Source of the DNA: Promethearchaeia archaeon
Lineage (GTDB): Archaea > Asgardarchaeota > Lokiarchaeia > Sigyniarchaeales > SOKP01
Direction: 5' to 3'
Assembly: GCA_029856105.1 (NCBI GenBank)
Contig: JAHQWH010000222.1
Location: 1-14,337, forward strand
DNA: 14,337 bases
The position numbers were made by a program, and so were the translations under genes. The notes below the pieces were generated by a model. The model saw only the letters and a list, made by a program, of their open reading frames with translations. It was not told the DNA's origin and did no database searches. This document shows positions 1,290 to 14,099 of this stretch, one piece after another. Position 1 is the stretch's first letter; every line of letters begins with the position of its first letter.

Positions 1290-2651
1290 ATGCCAAGCCA
1301 AAATGCTTATATATTGAAAAAAGCTGAACAGTTGACGTTTCAATCTAAAATTGCAATAAGAAATAAAAATTACAAATCAGCTATTTCGTCTTTATTAATA
1401 GCTAAAGATCTCTATACTAAATTAGGATTAACAGGAGAAATTGGGATTGTAATAAAAGAAATTGTTCGATTAAAGAATTTAGAAAAAGAGGAAAATATCT
1501 CTTTAACCGTATCTAAAGATAAATTTATTACTCCCAGCGATAGAGTCCCTTTTAAATCCAGTCTGAATAGAGATAAAGTAGCACAGTCTGAAGATAATCA
1601 GATATCGGAGATAAAGGGAAACGAAATTTTAGAGAGTGCTAGAGAATTAGCTCTAGAAGACAAATTTGATGAATCTGTGAAGCTTTATAACAAAGCGTAT
1701 AATATTTTCAAGCAACTTAGTTATGATTACGAATGTAAGCAAATATTGTGGCAAATAAATGAAATTAAAGAATACCAACGATGGGGCCAATTACGAAAAT
1801 CTAAAGGCATTCAAGTTCCCTTAAAAGATATCGTAGCGTTAGCTTCTGCTGAAAGAAGGCGACAGAAAATACAAAAAGGCTTAGGCGTAGGGAGAAAACC
1901 TATAGAAATTGCTGGAAGTAAATTAGAAAAACAAAAAGACCCGGTATTAACTCAACGTAAAAAATACAAATTATTTGAACAAATGAAAAAAAACGAGGAA
2001 ATGGAAAACGAGATAGCAAACCGATCAGTTTCAATGGTAACAGAACAACATGATCAAAGAAATCAAAAATGGAAAGAACATCAAAACAAATTAAAACTAC
2101 TTCGAGAAAAGAAAATGCAAGAAGAAGCTCTTACTGCAAAAGCACAGGATCTTTTAAGCAAAGGAAATCAAAGTCTTCAACATAAAGATTACAATGAGGC
2201 TAAATCTTTATATAAACAAGCGATTGAATTATTTACTCAGCTTGGTTGGCGTGATCAAATAACTCTTTTGCGAAATGAGTTATTAAATATAGATCGATAT
2301 AAAAAGGAGGAAGAATTGAAGTTAGAGCGAGCTACATTAAAAAAATTAGAAGAAGAAAGAGAATTTCAGAAAAAAGTTTCAAGTGTTTTAAGTGAGAAGC
2401 AAAGATATAAAGCAAAGCTACAGCAAAGACAACTTGCTCTTTCTCCTGAAATTAAAAACAAGTTAGAGAAAGCAGAGCTAATAAGAGCTAAAGCAGAAAG
2501 AGAAGAGAGCATGAACAAATTTTCCAGAGTTCTGGCTCGGTATCAGTATATTCTTCAATTATACGAATCAATTCCTAAAGATTCCATTGATTTATCTATC
2601 AAGGTCTCAGAAATAGAGCAAAAGATTTTAGAGTTAAAAGCGAAATTGTAA
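1290..2651 (+). CDS. Hypothetical helical-repeat (TPR/MIT-like) coiled-coil protein
   Basis: 453-aa ORF. It has four dispersed helical units (e.g. KNYKSAISSLLIAKDLYTKLG, DKFDESVKLYNKAYNIFKQLS, KDYNEAKSLYKQAIELFTQLGW) separated by E/K/Q-rich coiled-coil. Confidence 0.7.
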   Translation: MPSQNAYILKKAEQLTFQSKIAIRNKNYKSAISSLLIAKDLYTKLGLTGEIGIVIKEIVRLKNLEKEENISLTVSKDKFITPSDRVPFKSSLNRDKVAQSEDNQISEIKGNEILESARELALEDKFDESVKLYNKAYNIFKQLSYDYECKQILWQINEIKEYQRWGQLRKSKGIQVPLKDIVALASAERRRQKIQKGLGVGRKPIEIAGSKLEKQKDPVLTQRKKYKLFEQMKKNEEMENEIANRSVSMVTEQHDQRNQKWKEHQNKLKLLREKKMQEEALTAKAQDLLSKGNQSLQHKDYNEAKSLYKQAIELFTQLGWRDQITLLRNELLNIDRYKKEEELKLERATLKKLEEEREFQKKVSSVLSEKQRYKAKLQQRQLALSPEIKNKLEKAELIRAKAEREESMNKFSRVLARYQYILQLYESIPKDSIDLSIKVSEIEQKILELKAKL

Positions 2652-2703
2652 TATTTTAGGCTTCTTTTATATAACTAATTAATTAATTAAATTTTGTAAT
2701 TAC

Positions 2704-3744
2704 ATGAAGAATCCCTTTTTAGAATTTTCCCACGTCCATAATTCAAAAGAATTGTTAGACATAGCTTTTAAGAGAGCTATGAAAAGTAGCGCTCAAGTCT
2801 CAAAGAATGCGCCTATTCTTTTAAAGGCAAAAAAAAAGGAATTTACACGAATAAAAGTAGCAATTAAGGAATTAATAGAGAGAATTCTTACTATAATTAA
2901 GAAAGTGCCAATAATAGACGAGCTACCTGATTTTTACAAAGAGTTAGCGTCATTATTGGTCGATATTGACGAGTTAAAATTAACTCTTGGAAAACTTAAT
3001 GGAATTTTACCCGTTTTAAGCAAATTAGAAAGGGAACATTCAAAAAAATTAAGTCAGATTGAAACACCTAAAGACGCTGATCGAATCAGAAGAGCTGCTT
3101 TCGGAAGAGTTTCGTCGATAATTAGAAAACAAAATAAAAACCTCGAATATTTAAATAGCGTTAGAGGGAGATTAAAAGAAATCCCCTCGCTCGATTATAC
3201 TACGCATTGTATCGTAGTCGCGGGATATCCTAATGTGGGTAAAAGTAGTATTGTGAAAAATATTTCAACGAATAAAAAAGTTGAAATTCAAGAATACCCC
3301 TTCACAACAAAAAAATTATCGTTAGGCCATCTATTTATCGAGAAGAGATTTGATTCAATTAAATTACAAATTATGGATACGCCCGGAATATTGGACAGGT
3401 CAATGACAGAAAGAAACAACATTGAATTACAAGCAGTTTTAGCCCTAAAACTAATATCGGATTTAATTCTTTTCGTATTTGATCCAACTCCCGCATGTGG
3501 TTATTCTATTGATTCGCAATTGGACTTATTTTCCGAAGTTAAAAATAATTTTACAAAAGAGGGAAAAATCCAGATAGTAATTCTATTCAATAAAATGGAT
3601 TTAGCCAACTCTGATGAGATCGAATATCTTAAAGAAAAATTAAATATAAGAGACGAGGAGTACTTTTTAATTAACGCTTTAACCGGAGAAAATCTTGATG
3701 ATGTGGTAAAGTACTTAAAGGATAAATACGCTAACTCACAGTAA
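2704..3744 (+). CDS. nog1: NOG1-family (Obg-like) GTP-binding protein, ribosome biogenesis
   Basis: G1 GYPNVGKSS, G2 YPFTTK, G3 DTPGILDR, G4 NKMD, RNNIELQA motif, and an N-terminal helical domain with LPDFYKEL. Confidence 0.93.
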   Translation: MKNPFLEFSHVHNSKELLDIAFKRAMKSSAQVSKNAPILLKAKKKEFTRIKVAIKELIERILTIIKKVPIIDELPDFYKELASLLVDIDELKLTLGKLNGILPVLSKLEREHSKKLSQIETPKDADRIRRAAFGRVSSIIRKQNKNLEYLNSVRGRLKEIPSLDYTTHCIVVAGYPNVGKSSIVKNISTNKKVEIQEYPFTTKKLSLGHLFIEKRFDSIKLQIMDTPGILDRSMTERNNIELQAVLALKLISDLILFVFDPTPACGYSIDSQLDLFSEVKNNFTKEGKIQIVILFNKMDLANSDEIEYLKEKLNIRDEEYFLINALTGENLDDVVKYLKDKYANSQ

Positions 3745-7607: not shown

Positions 7608-10517
7608 TTGAATATTCTGACATTAGACGAAAGAAAAGTTGAAGAATTGATTTTAAGCGGAGGCTATGAAAAAGCCGCTGAAGAACTTTTTGAAATTATT
7701 GAAAATCCAGAGAACTCAAATAAAGAACTACTATACGATAGTTTAACTTTATTAAATAAAATCTGTGATAAGTCACCAGCAATTTCTTTAAGAACTGTAA
7801 AAAACTTAGCAAATACAATAAGTGATCTTAACTCGTGGATTAGATTAGTTTCTTTAGAAATTCTTTATCAAATTTCGATGTATCGTCCAAACTTACTAAT
7901 TGATCTAATAAATAATATAAGGTCACGACTTTTTGATCAGGAACCCTCTATTAGGCGATTAACTGTAAAGATTATAGGAAATTTAATTCTTTCTTTACAC
8001 CTCGATAGAGAAAAGTTACGAGACATTATTGAAGAATTTACAGAGAAATTGATCGATAATGACTGGAAGGTTAAACTTCAGGTTATCAAAACTCTTAAGA
8101 GAATTATAAATCAAGACTACACTAAGATACGAGAATTAGAGCCGTTACTTTCTATCGTAATCGTTAATTTAAGGGACGAAGACGATGATGTTGCGAGATC
8201 ATCCGCGGAACTTTTGAAAATCCTTGGTACATATTTTCTATCTAAGGAAAATATTATGTATGTTTTATTAAACCTTCTTTACAACGAAAAAGCTCGCGTA
8301 AAAGAACTTATTATTTGGCTAATCGGAGAAATAGGAAAAGAAAAATCGTCAGAAATAATTCCAATAATACCAAAATTGATTAACCTTTTAAAAGAAAATA
8401 ACTACCGTATCCAACTTAGAGTAATCGATTCTTTAGTAAACATTGCGGAGAACAATTTTGATCAAATTTGGGCGAACTTAAAAACAGCTTTATATACGGC
8501 CGACTCCGAATTTAGAAATGTAATCATTAATGCGCTGTATCACTTATGTCAAGCTAATATCATGGAAGTTTTTAATTATATCTTTGAAGAATTTGAAAAT
8601 CCCTCTGAAAATGTCAGAGACGCGGTTGCTCTCGTTTTTAAGCGCCTCTATGAAGAGTATCAAGTAGAAATTGAGAACGAAATTGCAAAAATTTTATACC
8701 AACTAGAATCTAAATATTGGCGCCAAAGAAAAAAAACCATTATTCTTTTGAGGAATATAAGCTTCATATTAGAAAGTCAAAAAGTTGCAGTCTGGATTTT
8801 TATAGAATTGGAAAAAATTTTAAAAATTGAAAGCGATCCAGATGTAAACGAAGAAATTATTTATACGATAAAAACTACCAAAGCAAAATTTAAAGAAATT
8901 GAAAAAACAATTCAAAATGTTAACGAAGATTTAGAAATATTTCTTAAAAAAATTCACGAATTCCAAAAAATTCCGGCTCAATTTAGAGAAAAAATGAATT
9001 CATACATAAAAGAATTCAAATTTTACGAGACTGAAATAGAACTAGATAAGGTATACCGCACAATTTTAAAAAAAATAAAGAAATTTAACAAGAGACTAAA
9101 TAAATTCGAGTACAAGAGATTAGCGTTTAACTTAATAGAGGATTGGGAAGAAACTAAAGTTACCATTATTGATGAACTCAGTATTATAAAAGGATTCATT
9201 TCAGAGATTTTTGAAGAAAAGAAAGCAGAATTTACTATTAGCCTTAGATCAAAAGTTAAACTTTTAGAGGACCGTATTAAAGTTTTAAAAGTTCAATTTG
9301 ACTATGTGAAGGCGTATAAACTTCCCGAAAGTTTTGACGAGTTGATATTAGAGAATTTTCAAGATGACGAAATCGAAGAGAGATTCGAACAAATTACACA
9401 ACTTAGAAATTATTTATTCAAACTTGATGACGACATTCGTGAAATTTTAGTACGGAACGTAGAGTTTAACGAAGTTTTTAAGGGTTTGTTAAAAAACTGG
9501 GTTGCTGTTAAGATTGAACTTCAAGAATATTTGAGCGATTTAGATAGAAAAATCAAATCAATAAAAGATAGAATCGTAATCGAAATTCAACGCTCTAATG
9601 GCAACATTAAAGACCAAAAACTTAACATGTTATCTTCAATATTATTCCAAGGTCATATACAATCAGTAATCACGCAAGGAATTGAAGGTCTTAAACGATT
9701 TAACGATAATTTCGTTAATTTAGAATCAAAATTAGGTATGTTGCTAAAAAGGAGTGAATTCTCGGACGCAAGAAAGCTTATAGAAATGAATACTAACCAA
9801 ATTCAAAATTTTATCGAGGATTATGAAAATCAAATAGACAATATTATAGGAAAACTAACTGAAGATAACGATGTTTTTAACCTATATGTAAGACCTTCTA
9901 TTACAAAATTTGTATCTTTTAAGGAAATGCTTATCAATAAATTAAAAATCTTTACACAAAAGAGTACTGATAAACTTTTCTTAAATCAAATAAAATATTA
10001 TCTCGATGTCATGAATCCTATTAAATTGGAGAGTCTTTCCTCTTTTATAGATTTAGATATCGATCTGTTGAAAGAAAAACTTGTAAAGTTCGTTAACAAA
10101 AATAAGCTCAATGCGAGAATTATTAAGGACAGCCTTTATTCGCCAAGGATAGAAGATATTATTGAACCGAAGGATATTCTTTTCTTCAAGAGCATAAAGA
10201 CGATCGGAAATAAGATTTATTTTAATTTTAAATTGAACAATCCAACCAATCTATTGTTTTCGGAATTACAAATTTCTCTTAAAACTCCTGTGTACTTAAC
10301 CTTTTTGAGAAAAGAAAGCTTCCCTAAATATCTATATATTAACGAGTTAAAACCTGGAAATGTGTTTAAGTTTAATTATGTCTTAAGAATCGAACGAAAT
10401 ATTGAAAAAAACTTAACAGACCCAACAGTTGACGAAGTTAACCTTAATATATATTATAAAGACCCTTTCGACATTACACGTAGAATAACTAAGAAGATAG
10501 ATCTTTTACTTCCCTAA
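7608..10517 (+). CDS. Large HEAT-repeat solenoid protein with coiled-coil, PCI/winged-helix-like segment and C-terminal Ig-like beta-sandwich
   Basis: About 9-10 HEAT repeats in aa 1-430 (DLNSWIRLVSLEIL, DQEPSIRRLTVKII, DNDWKVKLQVIKTL, DEDDDVARSSAELL, ENPSENVRDAVALV). Helical/coiled-coil middle. IKLESLSSFIDLDIDLLKEKLVKFVNKNKLNARI at about aa 805-840. Beta-rich tail (FNFKLNNPT..FSELQISL, INELKPG, LNIYYKD). TTG start uncertain. Confidence 0.8.
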   Translation: MNILTLDERKVEELILSGGYEKAAEELFEIIENPENSNKELLYDSLTLLNKICDKSPAISLRTVKNLANTISDLNSWIRLVSLEILYQISMYRPNLLIDLINNIRSRLFDQEPSIRRLTVKIIGNLILSLHLDREKLRDIIEEFTEKLIDNDWKVKLQVIKTLKRIINQDYTKIRELEPLLSIVIVNLRDEDDDVARSSAELLKILGTYFLSKENIMYVLLNLLYNEKARVKELIIWLIGEIGKEKSSEIIPIIPKLINLLKENNYRIQLRVIDSLVNIAENNFDQIWANLKTALYTADSEFRNVIINALYHLCQANIMEVFNYIFEEFENPSENVRDAVALVFKRLYEEYQVEIENEIAKILYQLESKYWRQRKKTIILLRNISFILESQKVAVWIFIELEKILKIESDPDVNEEIIYTIKTTKAKFKEIEKTIQNVNEDLEIFLKKIHEFQKIPAQFREKMNSYIKEFKFYETEIELDKVYRTILKKIKKFNKRLNKFEYKRLAFNLIEDWEETKVTIIDELSIIKGFISEIFEEKKAEFTISLRSKVKLLEDRIKVLKVQFDYVKAYKLPESFDELILENFQDDEIEERFEQITQLRNYLFKLDDDIREILVRNVEFNEVFKGLLKNWVAVKIELQEYLSDLDRKIKSIKDRIVIEIQRSNGNIKDQKLNMLSSILFQGHIQSVITQGIEGLKRFNDNFVNLESKLGMLLKRSEFSDARKLIEMNTNQIQNFIEDYENQIDNIIGKLTEDNDVFNLYVRPSITKFVSFKEMLINKLKIFTQKSTDKLFLNQIKYYLDVMNPIKLESLSSFIDLDIDLLKEKLVKFVNKNKLNARIIKDSLYSPRIEDIIEPKDILFFKSIKTIGNKIYFNFKLNNPTNLLFSELQISLKTPVYLTFLRKESFPKYLYINELKPGNVFKFNYVLRIERNIEKNLTDPTVDEVNLNIYYKDPFDITRRITKKIDLLLP

Positions 10518-10563
10518 TAATTTATTAGTTTTTTCTATAGAAACTAAAAAAATCTACTTTTTA

Positions 10564-10629
10564 TATCGAAATTGTAAATAATTTATTACGAAAATATTAA
10601 TATAATCAGATAGTCTTTTAAATTCACAA
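10564..10629 (+). promoter_or_regulatory. selD copy 1 promoter: upstream TATCGAA, BRE-like CGAAAA, TATA-like TATTAATA, putative initiator region
   Basis: TATCGAA (10564-10570), 18 nt, CGA-A-AATATTAATA (10589-10602), 18 nt, AATTCACAA (10621-10629). The same motifs recur with identical spacing before copy 2. Confidence 0.65.
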
Positions 10630-10660
10630 CCAATAAGGTTTATAACATTTTTAAAAAACC

Positions 10661-10669
10661 GTGAGGTGA
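10661..10669 (+). promoter_or_regulatory. Shine-Dalgarno of selD copy 1
   Basis: GTGAGGTGA directly abuts ATG 10670 and is complementary to the archaeal 16S 3' end. The identical 9-mer precedes copy 2. Confidence 0.75.
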
Positions 10670-11707
10670 ATGCTACAAGAAGAAGAGAGTTATCGCTTGA
10701 CACTGCAGACTAAATTATTCGGATGAAACTGTAAACTTGATTCTAAAAAATTAGACGAATTGTTGGCTGGCGCTGGCTTGAAAGGAGATATCGAGGATTC
10801 TGCTGTAATTCCCGTACCAAACACCGATTTAGTACTGGTAAAAAACATTGACATCTTCACACCGATTATCGACGAACCAGATATAATGGGTGAAATCGCT
10901 GCTGCAAACGTAACTAACGATGTTTTCGCGTTAAACGTTCTGGAAATCTCAGGAATGCTAGTATTTCTTGGCTTAAAAAAAAATATGCCTATGCACATCG
11001 CAGAAGGAATATTGAAAGGTATTAGAAATTTCATGGAAAATAAAATACACTCGAAAGTACTTGGAGGACATACAATCTATTCAGAATGGCCTTTAATTGG
11101 CGGTGAAGCTTCAGGATTCGTCAATAAAAACAAACTGATTAAAAAGAACTACGTAGAAGAGGGTGATAAATTAATACTGACTAAACCCGTGGGAAACCAA
11201 GCAATCATGGCTGCATATCGCTTACAAAAAAACAGACCAGACCTCTTAGAAACTTACTCCAAAGCCAAAATCGATAAATCAATCGATTTGGCCATAGAAT
11301 TTATGACTATGCCGCTAAAAAACATTGTAAAGACTATTCATTCTTATCAAGACGTATCTTTCGTACATTCAATGACAGATGTTTCCGGTTTTGCACTCTC
11401 GGGGCATTTAAAGGAGATGCTTCAAGGCTCTAACCTTTCTGCTAATATTAAGAAGGTCCCGATATTTAAACTAGCAAAAGAACTGTCGTACGATTTTGGA
11501 TACAAATTCGATGAATGCGAAATGCCTGAGACCGCCGGGGGTATGCTCCTTTCTGTTGATCATAATTATGCTGAAGAATTCTCCAAGAGACTTGCTAATG
11601 AACATCAAGTGTCTAATTGGATTGTAGGAACAATCGATAACATTAATGAAACTCGACAGGTTCAAATTTCAAAAAATGTTGAACATATCGAAATAACTGA
11701 AATTTAA
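10670..11707 (+). CDS. selD: Selenide, water dikinase (selenophosphate synthetase), selenoprotein, copy 1; 345 aa, Sec19 (TGA 10724-10726)
   Basis: Manual translation from ATG 10670 gives MLQEEESYRLTLQTKLFG-U-NCKLDSKKLDELLAGAG..., in frame with the 10760 ORF. The TGA aligns with the catalytic Cys/Sec of the SelD G-C-x-C-K motif. Other motifs: DIFTPIIDEP, GGHTI, GDKLILTKP.G, TDVSGFALSGH, ETAGGML. A SECIS follows the stop. Confidence 0.95.
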
Positions 11708-11778
11708 CGATGTCAATGAAATAAGCTAAAACACTGTATGTGAGCGCTTATTGAGAGTTCCATCGCAAGACGGCATCG
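11708..11778 (+). promoter_or_regulatory. Eukaryote-type 3'UTR SECIS element of selD copy 1
   Basis: Helix I CGATG(TC)/(GG)CATCG. Core ATGA 11716-11719 with GA 11753-11754. Helix II AATAAGC/GCTTATT. Apical AAAA 11728-11731. Mini-helix CAC/GTG. Side hairpin CCATC-GCAA-GACGG. Confidence 0.92.
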
Positions 11779-11790
11779 AAAAGCTTTACT

Positions 11791-11808
11791 GTTTTTATTT
11801 TCATTTTA
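11791..11808 (+). terminator. T-rich tract after SECIS1, probable terminator of selD copy 1
   Basis: GTTTTTATTTTCATTTT starts about 12 nt after the SECIS. Archaeal intrinsic terminators are oligo-U tracts. Confidence 0.45.
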
Positions 11809-11912
11809 TAATTAATTTTCTAAATCTTTATTTTCACTTAGATTTTTTCGCTTCCATTCTATTAAGTACAATCTAAAAAGACGCCTTGAAAACCCTAAAG
11901 AATTTATATTTT

Positions 11913-11944
11913 GATTGAAAAACTCTTCAATCTTTTTTTGTTTT
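11913..11944 (+). terminator. Hairpin plus U-tract between the two selD copies
   Basis: GATTGAA-AAACTC-TTCAATC is a perfect 7-bp stem (11913-11932), followed by TTTTTTTGTTTT. Confidence 0.45.
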
Positions 11945-12067
11945 AACCGGAAAATAAGCATACAATAAAATTACTTAAGCAGTTTTTAGTTACCTTGAAA
12001 ACCAACTGTTTTATTAAAGTCCTTATAACATGGGTGTAATATTGTTTTAAAATTGATAATAAAAGCT

Positions 12068-12133
12068 TATCGAAGAAATAGATAGATAGAATCGACAATA
12101 TTAATAAATAAGAATGATTTTTTCAATTAACAA
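12068..12133 (+). promoter_or_regulatory. selD copy 2 promoter (homologous to the copy 1 promoter)
   Basis: TATCGAA (12068-12074), 18 nt, CGA-C-AATATTAATA (12093-12106), 18 nt, AATTAACAA (12125-12133). Confidence 0.65.
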
Positions 12134-12190
12134 TTCTTGATTCCTTTATTACATAATAGTTAGTTAATAAAATTTAAAATAAAATAAGAT

Positions 12191-12199
12191 GTGAGGTGA
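12191..12199 (+). promoter_or_regulatory. Shine-Dalgarno of selD copy 2
   Basis: GTGAGGTGA-AAA-ATG(12203). Confidence 0.8.
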
Positions 12200-12202
12200 A
12201 AA

Positions 12203-13231
12203 ATGGAGAAAAAGGAAGTATATAGACTTACTTCACAGGTTAAGATTCACGGATGAAGTTGTAAGCTTGGTTCAAATAGCCTAGAGAACTTACTAGCAAG
12301 AGCGGGATTACAAGGCGATATTGAAGACGCTGCGATCATCCCAGTCCCAAATAGTGATTTAGTAATGGTCAAAAATATTGATGTTTTTACACCTATTGTC
12401 GATGAACCAGAAATTATGGGTCAAATTGCTGCGTCTAATGTAACCAGTGATATATTTGCGATGAATGTTCCAGATATTTCTGGAATGTTAGTATTTTTAG
12501 GGATTAATACTAATACTCCAATGGAAGTAGCTGAGGGAATATTAAAAGGAATCAAATATTTTATGGAAGAAAAAATTAATTCGCAAGTAGTTGGAGGCCA
12601 TACTATATATAGCGAATGGCCAATGATAGGAGGAGAAGCTTCGGGTTTTGCACACAAAGATTCAATAATTCTTAAACAAGGAGTTAAAAAAGGAGATAAA
12701 TTGATTCTAACTAAACCAATTGGCCTACAAGGCACTATGGCCGCTTATAGGACTCTTAAAAATATGCCTGAAATGTTAGAACAATATTCAAAAAGTGAAC
12801 TACAAAAATCGATTGATTATGCTATAGAATTAATGATAACACCAAATCAGAACGTAGTGAAAACTATTCACTCTTATCAAGATTTTTCGTTCGTTCATGC
12901 ACTTACAGATGTTACGGGTTTTGGGCTAAGTGGGCATATAAAAGAAATGCTGCAGAATTCTACCTTATCTGCAATTATTGAAACCATTCCATCAATAAGA
13001 TTTTCAAAGGAACTTTCAGAAGAATTAGGATACGCTTTTGATGATTGTAGCTGTCATGAGACCGCTGGAGGGATGTTGATCGCTATAGATCCCAAAAAGG
13101 TTGAAGAATTTTCAAATACTCTTATTAGTAATAATGTAGAGAATTGGATTGTAGGTACAATTGATAACATTGAACCTGGCTTAGTTAGAGTTGCTGATAA
13201 CGTAGAAAATGTTGAGATTGTTAAGTATTAG
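12203..13231 (+). CDS. selD: Selenide, water dikinase (selenophosphate synthetase), selenoprotein, copy 2; 342 aa, Sec18 (TGA 12254-12256)
   Basis: Manual translation from ATG 12203 gives MEKKEVYRLTSQVKIHG-U-SCKLGSNSLENLLARAGLQGDIEDAAIIPVPNSDLVMVKNID..., in frame with the 12365 ORF. Canonical SDIFAM, GGHTI, LTKPIG and TDVTGFGLSGH. A SECIS follows the stop. Confidence 0.96.
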
Positions 13232-13302
13232 AGATGTCAATGAAATAAGCTAAAACACTATATGTGAGAGTTTATTGAGTTTCCACCCGTAAGGTGGCAT
13301 CT
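13232..13302 (+). promoter_or_regulatory. Eukaryote-type 3'UTR SECIS element of selD copy 2
   Basis: Helix I AGATG(TC)/(GG)CATCT. Core ATGA 13240-13243 with GA 13277-13278. Helix II AATAAGCT/AGTTTATT. Apical AAAA 13252-13255. Mini-helix CAC/GTG. Side hairpin CCACC-CGTAA-GGTGG. 27 consecutive nt (13233-13259) are identical to SECIS1 (11709-11735). Confidence 0.92.
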
Positions 13303-13310
13303 AAAATAAT

Positions 13311-14099
13311 TTATTCCTTAATTTCACCATTCAGATTTATTATAACATCCTTTATTTCTTTCAAAGCTTTTTCAGCCATTTCTTCTCCGTTTTCAACATT
13401 AAAACAGGTTATTGATACTTCTACTTCAACTGAAAGTCCGATCCTTGGGTGTGTTTTAATCCATAACTGAGGATACTTCTCTTCAAGTTTAGTAACATAA
13501 GGAGCTATCTGAGATTCACCAATGCCCATAAATATAAAACCCTTTTCTACGAATTTTCCCCGATTTTCTTTTAATATTGGTTTAATTACGTTAAGAAAAA
13601 TCGCTTTCATTTCAGCGGGAACACCGGGTAGTACGAAAATTGCCGTTTCACCTTCTTTAATTTTCACTCCAGGGGCGGTCCCTCTTATATTTGGTAATGG
13701 TGTCGATCCTTGAGGAAGATGTGCCATTTTTTCTCTTTCTTTGGTCATGCCTTCAAGTTTCAAAATTCCTCTTTCGTAAGCGCGTTCATATGCCTTCTTT
13801 ATAGAGTTATAAGCGTGTTCGTTTAGCTTTATTTCTCGATTTAAACCCTTTGCTATCCCCGCTAAAGTCATATCGTCAAATGTAGGACCAATCCCTCCCG
13901 AAGTAATTATCATATCTGGATTGCGTTTTAAAATAGTTTGTAGAGTATTTGAAATAACCTCAATACTATCTTCTATAGCAGTTATTCTTTTTATCCTATG
14001 CCCGTATTTCGTTATTCTTTTAGCCATCCAATTTGAATTAGTATCTTGGGTCTTTCCAATAAGGATTTCGTTTCCAATTACTAAAATTTCTACTTCCAT
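13311..14099 (-). CDS. CinA N-terminal-like / molybdopterin-binding domain protein (COG1058 pyrophosphatase family), without the PncC domain
   Basis: IGNEILIGKTQDTNSNW, SGGIGPTFDDMT, GTAPG, LPGVPAEMKAIF and GIGESQIAP motifs. Confidence 0.9.
   Translation of the reverse strand: MEVEILVIGNEILIGKTQDTNSNWMAKRITKYGHRIKRITAIEDSIEVISNTLQTILKRNPDMIITSGGIGPTFDDMTLAGIAKGLNREIKLNEHAYNSIKKAYERAYERGILKLEGMTKEREKMAHLPQGSTPLPNIRGTAPGVKIKEGETAIFVLPGVPAEMKAIFLNVIKPILKENRGKFVEKGFIFMGIGESQIAPYVTKLEEKYPQLWIKTHPRIGLSVEVEVSITCFNVENGEEMAEKALKEIKDVIINLNGEIKE

Follow-up and report, generated by a model that had tools for sequence, protein, structure and literature searches.

Tandem selD genes of a Loki-type Asgard archaeon with in-frame UGA codons and eukaryote-like SECIS elements are predicted to encode two selenoproteins

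The window analysed here (14,337 nucleotides) is the whole of one contig (C222) in the genome assembly of a Loki-type Asgard archaeon (Promethearchaeota). The assembly spans 3.66 Mb in 238 contigs with a G+C content of 31.9%, and its completeness and contamination are 92% and 6%, respectively. The window carries two selD paralogs, selD-1 and selD-2, arranged in tandem and co-oriented on the + strand (Table 1). Each has a single TGA in frame near its 5′ end and is followed immediately by a conserved RNA structure with the features of a selenocysteine insertion sequence (SECIS). Very probably, both genes encode selenoproteins, in which UGA would be read as selenocysteine (Sec) via an archaeal/eukaryotic-type pathway directed by a eukaryote-like SECIS.

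The full read-through products of selD-1 and selD-2 are 63% identical across 343 residues. Both contain the AIRS (PF00586) and AIRS_C (PF02769) domains and pass the TIGR00476 selD model (179.8 bits for selD-1 and 201.6 bits for selD-2; cut-off 125). The best NCBIfam model for both is PRK14105 (methanogen-type SelD), with scores of 258 and 282 that lie just under the cut-off of 291. The two TGAs stand in the common context GGA-TGA-AAC/AGT-TGT-AAA/AAG-CTT-G, and the frame upstream of each is open and homologous (YRLTLQTKLFG in selD-1 and YRLTSQVKIHG in selD-2), reaching back to an ATG led by the Shine–Dalgarno-like motif GAGGTGA. In a phmmer alignment with Escherichia coli SelD (3u0o), residues U19, C21 and K22 of selD-1 fall on Cys17, Cys19 and Lys20. 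The sequence GCSCKL in the structure of Leishmania SPS2 (5l16) aligns to the U-site stretch of selD-2. Five further residues of the E. coli enzyme, Asp51, Asp68, Asn87, Asp91 and Asp227, which we take to form the ATP/metal site, are all identical in the selD-1 alignment, and selD-2 has the same residues. A plain list of open reading frames (ORFs) yields only shortened versions of both proteins, and these lack the catalytic loop because the TGAs align with the catalytic Cys17 and are followed by the equivalents of Cys19 and Lys20. The initial annotation of this DNA, which was made from the letters and their ORFs, had described both TGAs in this context, traced the open frame upstream to a Shine–Dalgarno-led ATG, placed the codons at the Cys17/Sec position and held that the ORF-track versions are without the active site; direct reading of the sequence and the alignment with 3u0o bear this out. 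Its statement that the window holds no Cys-version backup extends to the whole 92%-complete assembly, in which only two copies of selD are present and no Cys-type selD was found. A third candidate, on contig C213, is a distant AIRS-family gene with 27% identity and not a selD.

The position of the TGA is conserved well beyond this genome. The 61 related genomes compared belong to the same genus, to four other families in the order and to two in the class. A selD with an in-frame TGA is present in 57 of them, with one TGA per full-length copy, and the TGA occupies the identical codon in all 42 copies that were read across the site (41 genomes, five families of the class), including every ortholog of selD-1 (the D1 paralog) so read. 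The surrounding motif in these copies is (H/F/Y)-G-U-x-(C/V)-K, preceded by a conserved YRLT-type stretch; throughout the class, the ∼17 codons before the TGA show conservation at the protein level (YRLT.Q.K..G). Given the 63% identity of the read-through products, their match to TIGR00476 and the 57 genomes with a TGA-bearing selD, the in-frame TGAs are not a matter of chance. Were the TGAs true stops, the genes would be pseudogenes or would use a start further downstream and yield SelD truncated at the N terminus, and products of this kind, of 287–321 amino acids, are indeed what standard ORF calling and most database entries on long contigs offer. Such products would be without the loop from Sec/Cys17 to Lys20, however, and true stops fit neither the protein-level conservation of the codons before the TGA, nor its fixed position in the 42 copies, nor the dedicated covarying SECIS that follows each gene (see below). 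We therefore regard termination at these codons as very improbable.

Public records of these proteins need to be read with the same codon in mind. Orthologs of selD-2 with 92–95% identity occur in public metagenomes. Most of the entries from long contigs are the N-terminally truncated proteins mentioned above, under the name 'selenide, water dikinase SelD [Promethearchaeota archaeon]', and the full-length entries (P0003–P0013, P0022, P0032 and P0068), all from contigs of 1–4 kb, carry W at the Sec site. Taken at face value, the W would suggest that UGA specifies one of the standard amino acids (Trp, Cys or Gly) by code reassignment or near-cognate read-through, and active SelD enzymes with Cys are known from other organisms. 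The restriction of W to short contigs, however, probably reflects a gene caller that used a code in which TGA is sense. In this genome TGA terminates 98 of 866 long ORFs (∼11%), no internal TGA interrupts the remaining ten genes of the window, and a complete Sec pathway and SECIS elements are present, all of which makes insertion of a standard amino acid highly unlikely. The truncated and the W-bearing records are both annotation artefacts: public SelD records either lose the active site or show Trp at the Sec position, and counts of the Asgard selenoproteome depend on the correct reading of such selD loci.

The initial annotation named no SECIS; one was found after each gene. A near-identical stretch of ∼71 nucleotides starts at the first base past the stop codon of both selD-1 and selD-2, and its structure was derived by aligning 3′ ends from 40 selD genes within the genus, 37 of which have the element directly behind the stop codon. 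In the 5′ core UGA is invariant and the preceding base is mostly A, with U or G in some sequences; its 3′ counterpart reads GA in 38 sequences and AA in two. The alignment supports four helices: helix I, which closes the element, a helix II of 6–7 bp with compensatory changes at five pairs, a 3 bp ministem (CAC/GUG) past a nearly invariant AAA(A) bulge, and a third hairpin. The ministem is 95.8% paired and shows no covariation. Across the 40 3′ untranslated regions, 92.9% of the cells of the 19-pair structure are paired and 12 pairs show compensatory changes; none of 500 shuffled controls was as good, and only 28–44% of cells were paired in slid controls. A C-G to U-A change in columns 67 and 82 of the alignment (A1), read by eye, places in the third hairpin two inner pairs that RNAalifold had assigned to helix I. 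A covariance model trained on the genus sequences has no hits in this genome at E ≤ 1 other than the two selD sites. With filters off, it recovers the same architecture directly after selD in six of 12 orthologs from other families that were not used in training, and the helix sequences of these six differ considerably from those of the genus; in five distant whole genomes there was no match among the 150 candidates scored out of 1,700–3,200. It is the SECIS that makes recoding of the UGA mechanistically credible.

The recoding signal could in principle be a hairpin of the bacterial type just downstream of the UGA, and the nucleotide context common to both paralogs (GGA-TGA-ARY-TGT-AAR-CTT-G) might be taken as its trace. 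This context is accounted for by the conserved peptide G-U-x-C-K-L, and the 67 nucleotides past each UGA fold no better than their shuffled counterparts (z = +0.6 and +1.0). With no stable fold at either UGA, no match to SelA in the genome and a machinery that is archaeal/eukaryotic, a bacterial-type SECIS was rejected as exceedingly unlikely. The element after the stop codon, for its part, has a feature of its own, the third hairpin, which is placed after the SECIS GA and before the 3′ strand of helix I (within 11755–11778 and 13279–13302) and mostly has a GNRA-type loop, often GCAA, GUAA or GCGA; it is kept in other families of the order (L044, L045 and L052–L055). Because this hairpin is inserted between the GA and the closing helix, the selD SECIS is a three-way junction. 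Its topology appears to resemble the 'k-junction' form of kink-turns reportedly described by Wang et al. in 2014. The SECIS might be a kink-turn within a three-way junction that serves as a control module of selD only, for example tuning SelD synthesis to the supply of selenium or EFSec, with control divided between D1 and D2, a proposal that we consider rather doubtful.

The genome also encodes the machinery that decoding of UGA as Sec would call for. The initial annotation had singled out a search for this machinery as a check on its proposal, to be refuted by a complete genome devoid of it; the search did not refute the proposal and returned SepSecS (478.6 bits, above the cut-off), a PSTK-like protein, an EFSec-like protein and a tRNA-Sec candidate with a UCA anticodon and two introns. 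The tRNA gene was found beside SepSecS by a permissive Rfam scan, with an unspliced score of 28 bits against RF01852. Its 9 bp acceptor stem is formed by GGCCCCCGG and CUGGGGGCC, the discriminator base is G73 and CCA is encoded. One intron of 33 nucleotides lies in the D arm and one of 30 nucleotides in the T loop; removal of both leaves 93 nucleotides, which ARAGORN calls tRNA-SeC(tca) and which adopt the archaeal 9/4 fold with a 7 bp D stem, a four-nucleotide D loop and a long variable arm. Plain ARAGORN on the whole genome gave no tRNA-Sec, and the two best whole-genome matches to RF01852 are tRNA-Gly(UCC) and tRNA-Leu(UAG).

Even with introns allowed, just 22 tRNA genes were detected in the whole genome, 15 of them intron-bearing and several with introns at noncanonical positions; evidently many tRNAs of this genome are invisible to standard tools. 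Among the calls of the same intron-tolerant search is a 'tRNA-Pyl(cta)' with a seven-nucleotide intron (C163:15819–15924, + strand), which may be a false positive of so permissive a search.

Selenouridine synthase was not found in the genome, so Sec synthesis is the sole known use of selenophosphate here and the presence of two SelDs could not be attributed to that enzyme. Potential clients of the pathway include four FlpD/VhuD (MvhD) homologs with two in-frame TGAs each, genes of the multi-Sec VhuD kind already known in Lokiarchaeota; seven further copies are without TGAs.

In the proposed pathway, Ser-tRNA(Sec) would be phosphorylated by PSTK and converted by SepSecS with selenophosphate as donor, and EFSec would deliver the resulting Sec-tRNA to UGA codon 19 of selD-1 or 18 of selD-2 under the direction of the type II eukaryote-like SECIS that begins at the first base past the stop codon. 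Sec would stand in for the catalytic Cys17 in the N-terminal glycine-rich loop, and each copy has retained its own Shine–Dalgarno motif, predicted Sec codon and SECIS. We infer both the insertion of Sec and the activity of the two predicted enzymes. It would follow that SelD synthesis depends on its own product in a positive feedback. The selenium-donor enzyme would itself be a selenoprotein, twice over and with no Cys fallback in the assembly. The idea of such a dependence loop (autoregulation) is an old one (Guimaraes et al., 1996, as referenced in PMC1717018).

Several points weigh against this interpretation. As the assembly is 92% complete, a selD of the Cys type may lie in the portion not covered. 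The PSTK candidate is a clear best match (140 bits) but scores under the curated cut-off, as does the EFSec candidate, which matches the SelB model best (230.8 bits versus 142 for EF-Tu); the sequences behind the PSTK and EFSec models are from bacteria or methanogens. The tRNA-Sec was recognized by ARAGORN only after splicing in silico, with intron borders chosen by fit. The minimum free energy of SECIS-1 is no lower than that of shuffled sequences (z = −0.16), so the support for this element is comparative and not thermodynamic; the value for SECIS-2 is z = −3.0. Finally, no Rfam family matches positions 10500–13600 at the gathering threshold or at E ≤ 10, and SECIS_1 misses the element. Standard tools likewise miss the lokiSECIS according to the text of Mariotti (2016; PMC4989117).

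Table 1. Features of the selD locus and of related loci in the same genome. Positions without a prefix refer to the window.
Feature	Position	Strand	Description and basis
HEAT-repeat protein	7608–10517	+	969 amino acids; directly upstream of selD-1
Shine–Dalgarno-like GAGGTGA	10663–10669	+	Abuts selD-1 start codon; read from sequence, putative function
selD-1 (D1 paralog)	10670–11707	+	345 codons including Sec19, stop TAA; translated with TGA = U
UGA, predicted Sec codon 19 of selD-1	10724–10726	+	F-G-U-N-C-K; alignment, ortholog conservation
Shortened selD-1 of ORF list	10760–11707		315 amino acids
SECIS-1	11708–11778	+	Type II eukaryote-like (SPS lokiSECIS-type); comparative alignment, covariance model 96.7 bits
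SECIS-1 helix I	11708–11714 with 11772–11778
SECIS-1 core	11716–11719; 11753–11754		AUGA; GA
SECIS-1 helix II	11720–11726 with 11746–11752		Followed by A-rich bulge
SECIS-1 ministem	11732–11734 with 11740–11742		CAC/GUG
SECIS-1 third hairpin	∼11760–11773
Oligo-T tract	11790–11806	+	TGTTTTTATTTTC; after SECIS-1, conserved in close relatives
Shine–Dalgarno-like GAGGTGA	12193–12199	+	3 nucleotides before selD-2 start codon; read from sequence
selD-2 (D2 paralog)	12203–13231	+	342 codons including Sec18, stop TAG; translated with TGA = U
UGA, predicted Sec codon 18 of selD-2	12254–12256	+	H-G-U-S-C-K; translation, ortholog conservation
Shortened selD-2 of ORF list	12365–13231		288 amino acids
SECIS-2	13232–13302	+	Architecture as SECIS-1; comparative alignment, covariance model 84.5 bits
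SECIS-2 core	13240–13243; 13277–13278		AUGA; GA
SECIS-2 third hairpin	13283–13297		CCACC/GGUGG
tRNA-Sec(UCA) candidate	C16 ∼26707–26854 (= L013:12708–12855)	−	Directly upstream of SepSecS; two introns
FlpD/VhuD gene with two TGAs	C132:21118–21480
FlpD/VhuD gene with two TGAs	C194:90661–91029
FlpD/VhuD gene with two TGAs	C11:34014–34382
FlpD/VhuD gene with two TGAs	C175:1215–1580

The two paralogs appear to derive from one duplication within the genus, in which selD-2 (D2) would represent the ancestral type and selD-1 (D1) the derived copy. Two selD matches are present in 19 of 36 sampled genomes of the genus in addition to this genome, and the D2 type is found in nearly all members. In at least 15 genomes both copies are located on one contig and strand, with D1 as the upstream copy and 0.5–2.2 kb between the two. 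A quick maximum-likelihood tree, from which partial copies were left out and in which D1 and D2 were labelled by best BLAST hit, places the nine D1 copies in a single clade (SH-aLRT 100) on a stem of 0.38 changes per site among the D2-type sequences of the genus. The 19 differences fixed between the clades, none at a catalytic residue, include U-N-C-K for U-S-C-K and S for T in the TDVTGF motif. The long stem, these fixed substitutions and the retention of D1 in about half of the sampled genus could indicate that D1, while also a Sec enzyme, has changed its role (in regulation, selenium/sulfur substrate or partner) and is not a simple dosage duplicate, a possibility also raised in the text of a 2024 study (ISME J; PMC11227280). 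The catalytic and metal-binding residues are all kept, however, the fixed substitutions are small in number and for the most part conservative, D1 has a SECIS of the same type, and no other selenium-use trait was found in the genome in the form of a selenouridine synthase; we therefore consider a changed role of D1 unlikely, if worth bearing in mind. Both copies are probably active.

The neighbours of the selD pair in the window are ordinary genes with no relation to selenium. They encode an aspartate-semialdehyde dehydrogenase, a coiled-coil/MIT-like protein, a NOG1-type GTPase, a glyoxalase-fold protein, a hydantoinase_A-like protein, an amino-acid-kinase-family protein, two MaoC-type dehydratase subunits and a convergent MoCF/CinA-like protein, besides the HEAT-repeat protein described below. 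SECIS-2 occupies the 79-nucleotide gap between selD-2 and the convergent gene, which ends at 13311, and the oligo-T tract after SECIS-1 is likely to be an archaeal terminator. The 969-residue protein encoded upstream of selD-1 has HEAT repeats in its N-terminal part; its long, coiled-coil-like remainder matches no family.

Selenoprotein SelD, the lokiSECIS and multiple selD genes have already been published for Lokiarchaeia, and the locus adds no new principle; it is a clean example of eukaryote-like Sec decoding in the archaea most closely related to eukaryotes. The new details are minor, namely a third, GNRA-capped hairpin in the selD SECIS and a second intron, in the D arm, of the tRNA-Sec. 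The text of Mariotti (2016; MBE, PMC4989117) describes SPS as a selenoprotein in Lokiarchaeota, with a single UGA in frame at the corresponding Sec position and a special 'SPS lokiSECIS' in which the main stem is shorter and an extra apical stem is present, 'resembling a eukaryotic type II SECIS', and gives Sec synthesis as the only known use of selenophosphate in this group. The elements found here agree with that description in their location in the 3′ untranslated region near the stop codon, their AUGA…GA core, short main stem, unpaired adenines and extra apical stem. The Loki tRNA-Sec of the same source also has a T-loop intron of ∼31 nucleotides, with EFSec ∼5–6 kb away on the opposite strand, and the two genes are arranged alike in the present genome. 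In contrast, SPS is single copy there and only a fragment in the Loki assembly, whereas two complete tandem copies are present here, and its text mentions an intron in the T loop of the tRNA-Sec but none in the D arm.

According to the text of the ISME J 2024 study (PMC11227280), Sec-SelD is the most widespread Asgard selenoprotein, present in 87.2% or >90% of Sec-utilizing genomes depending on the passage, and 51 genomes of Loki- and Thorarchaeia have two or more selD genes. Multiple copies and mainly type II SECIS elements with an AUGA_GA core are common to that survey and the present locus. The SECIS models in its text consist of core, upper stem and apical loop; neither a lower helix nor a three-way junction is described, and the single origin of D1 and D2 and their fixed order in tandem, D1 then D2, are not stated. 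A junction-forming third hairpin is likewise absent from the text, figures aside, of both this paper and PMC4989117.

Among more distant systems, the SelD of Methanococcales (M. jannaschii) and eukaryotic SPS2/SEPHS2 are similar in the enzyme itself, in Sec at the equivalent of Cys17, in a SECIS in the 3′ untranslated region and in the idea of self-dependence. The methanogen SECIS differs in being of the archaeal type, and the eukaryotic SECIS has a longer helix II and needs SBP2. E. coli SelD (3u0o) has the same fold family and catalytic loop, with C17, C19 and K20 in place of U, C and K, but it contains Cys instead of Sec and belongs to the bacterial pathway, which uses SelA, SelB and a SECIS within the coding region of client genes.

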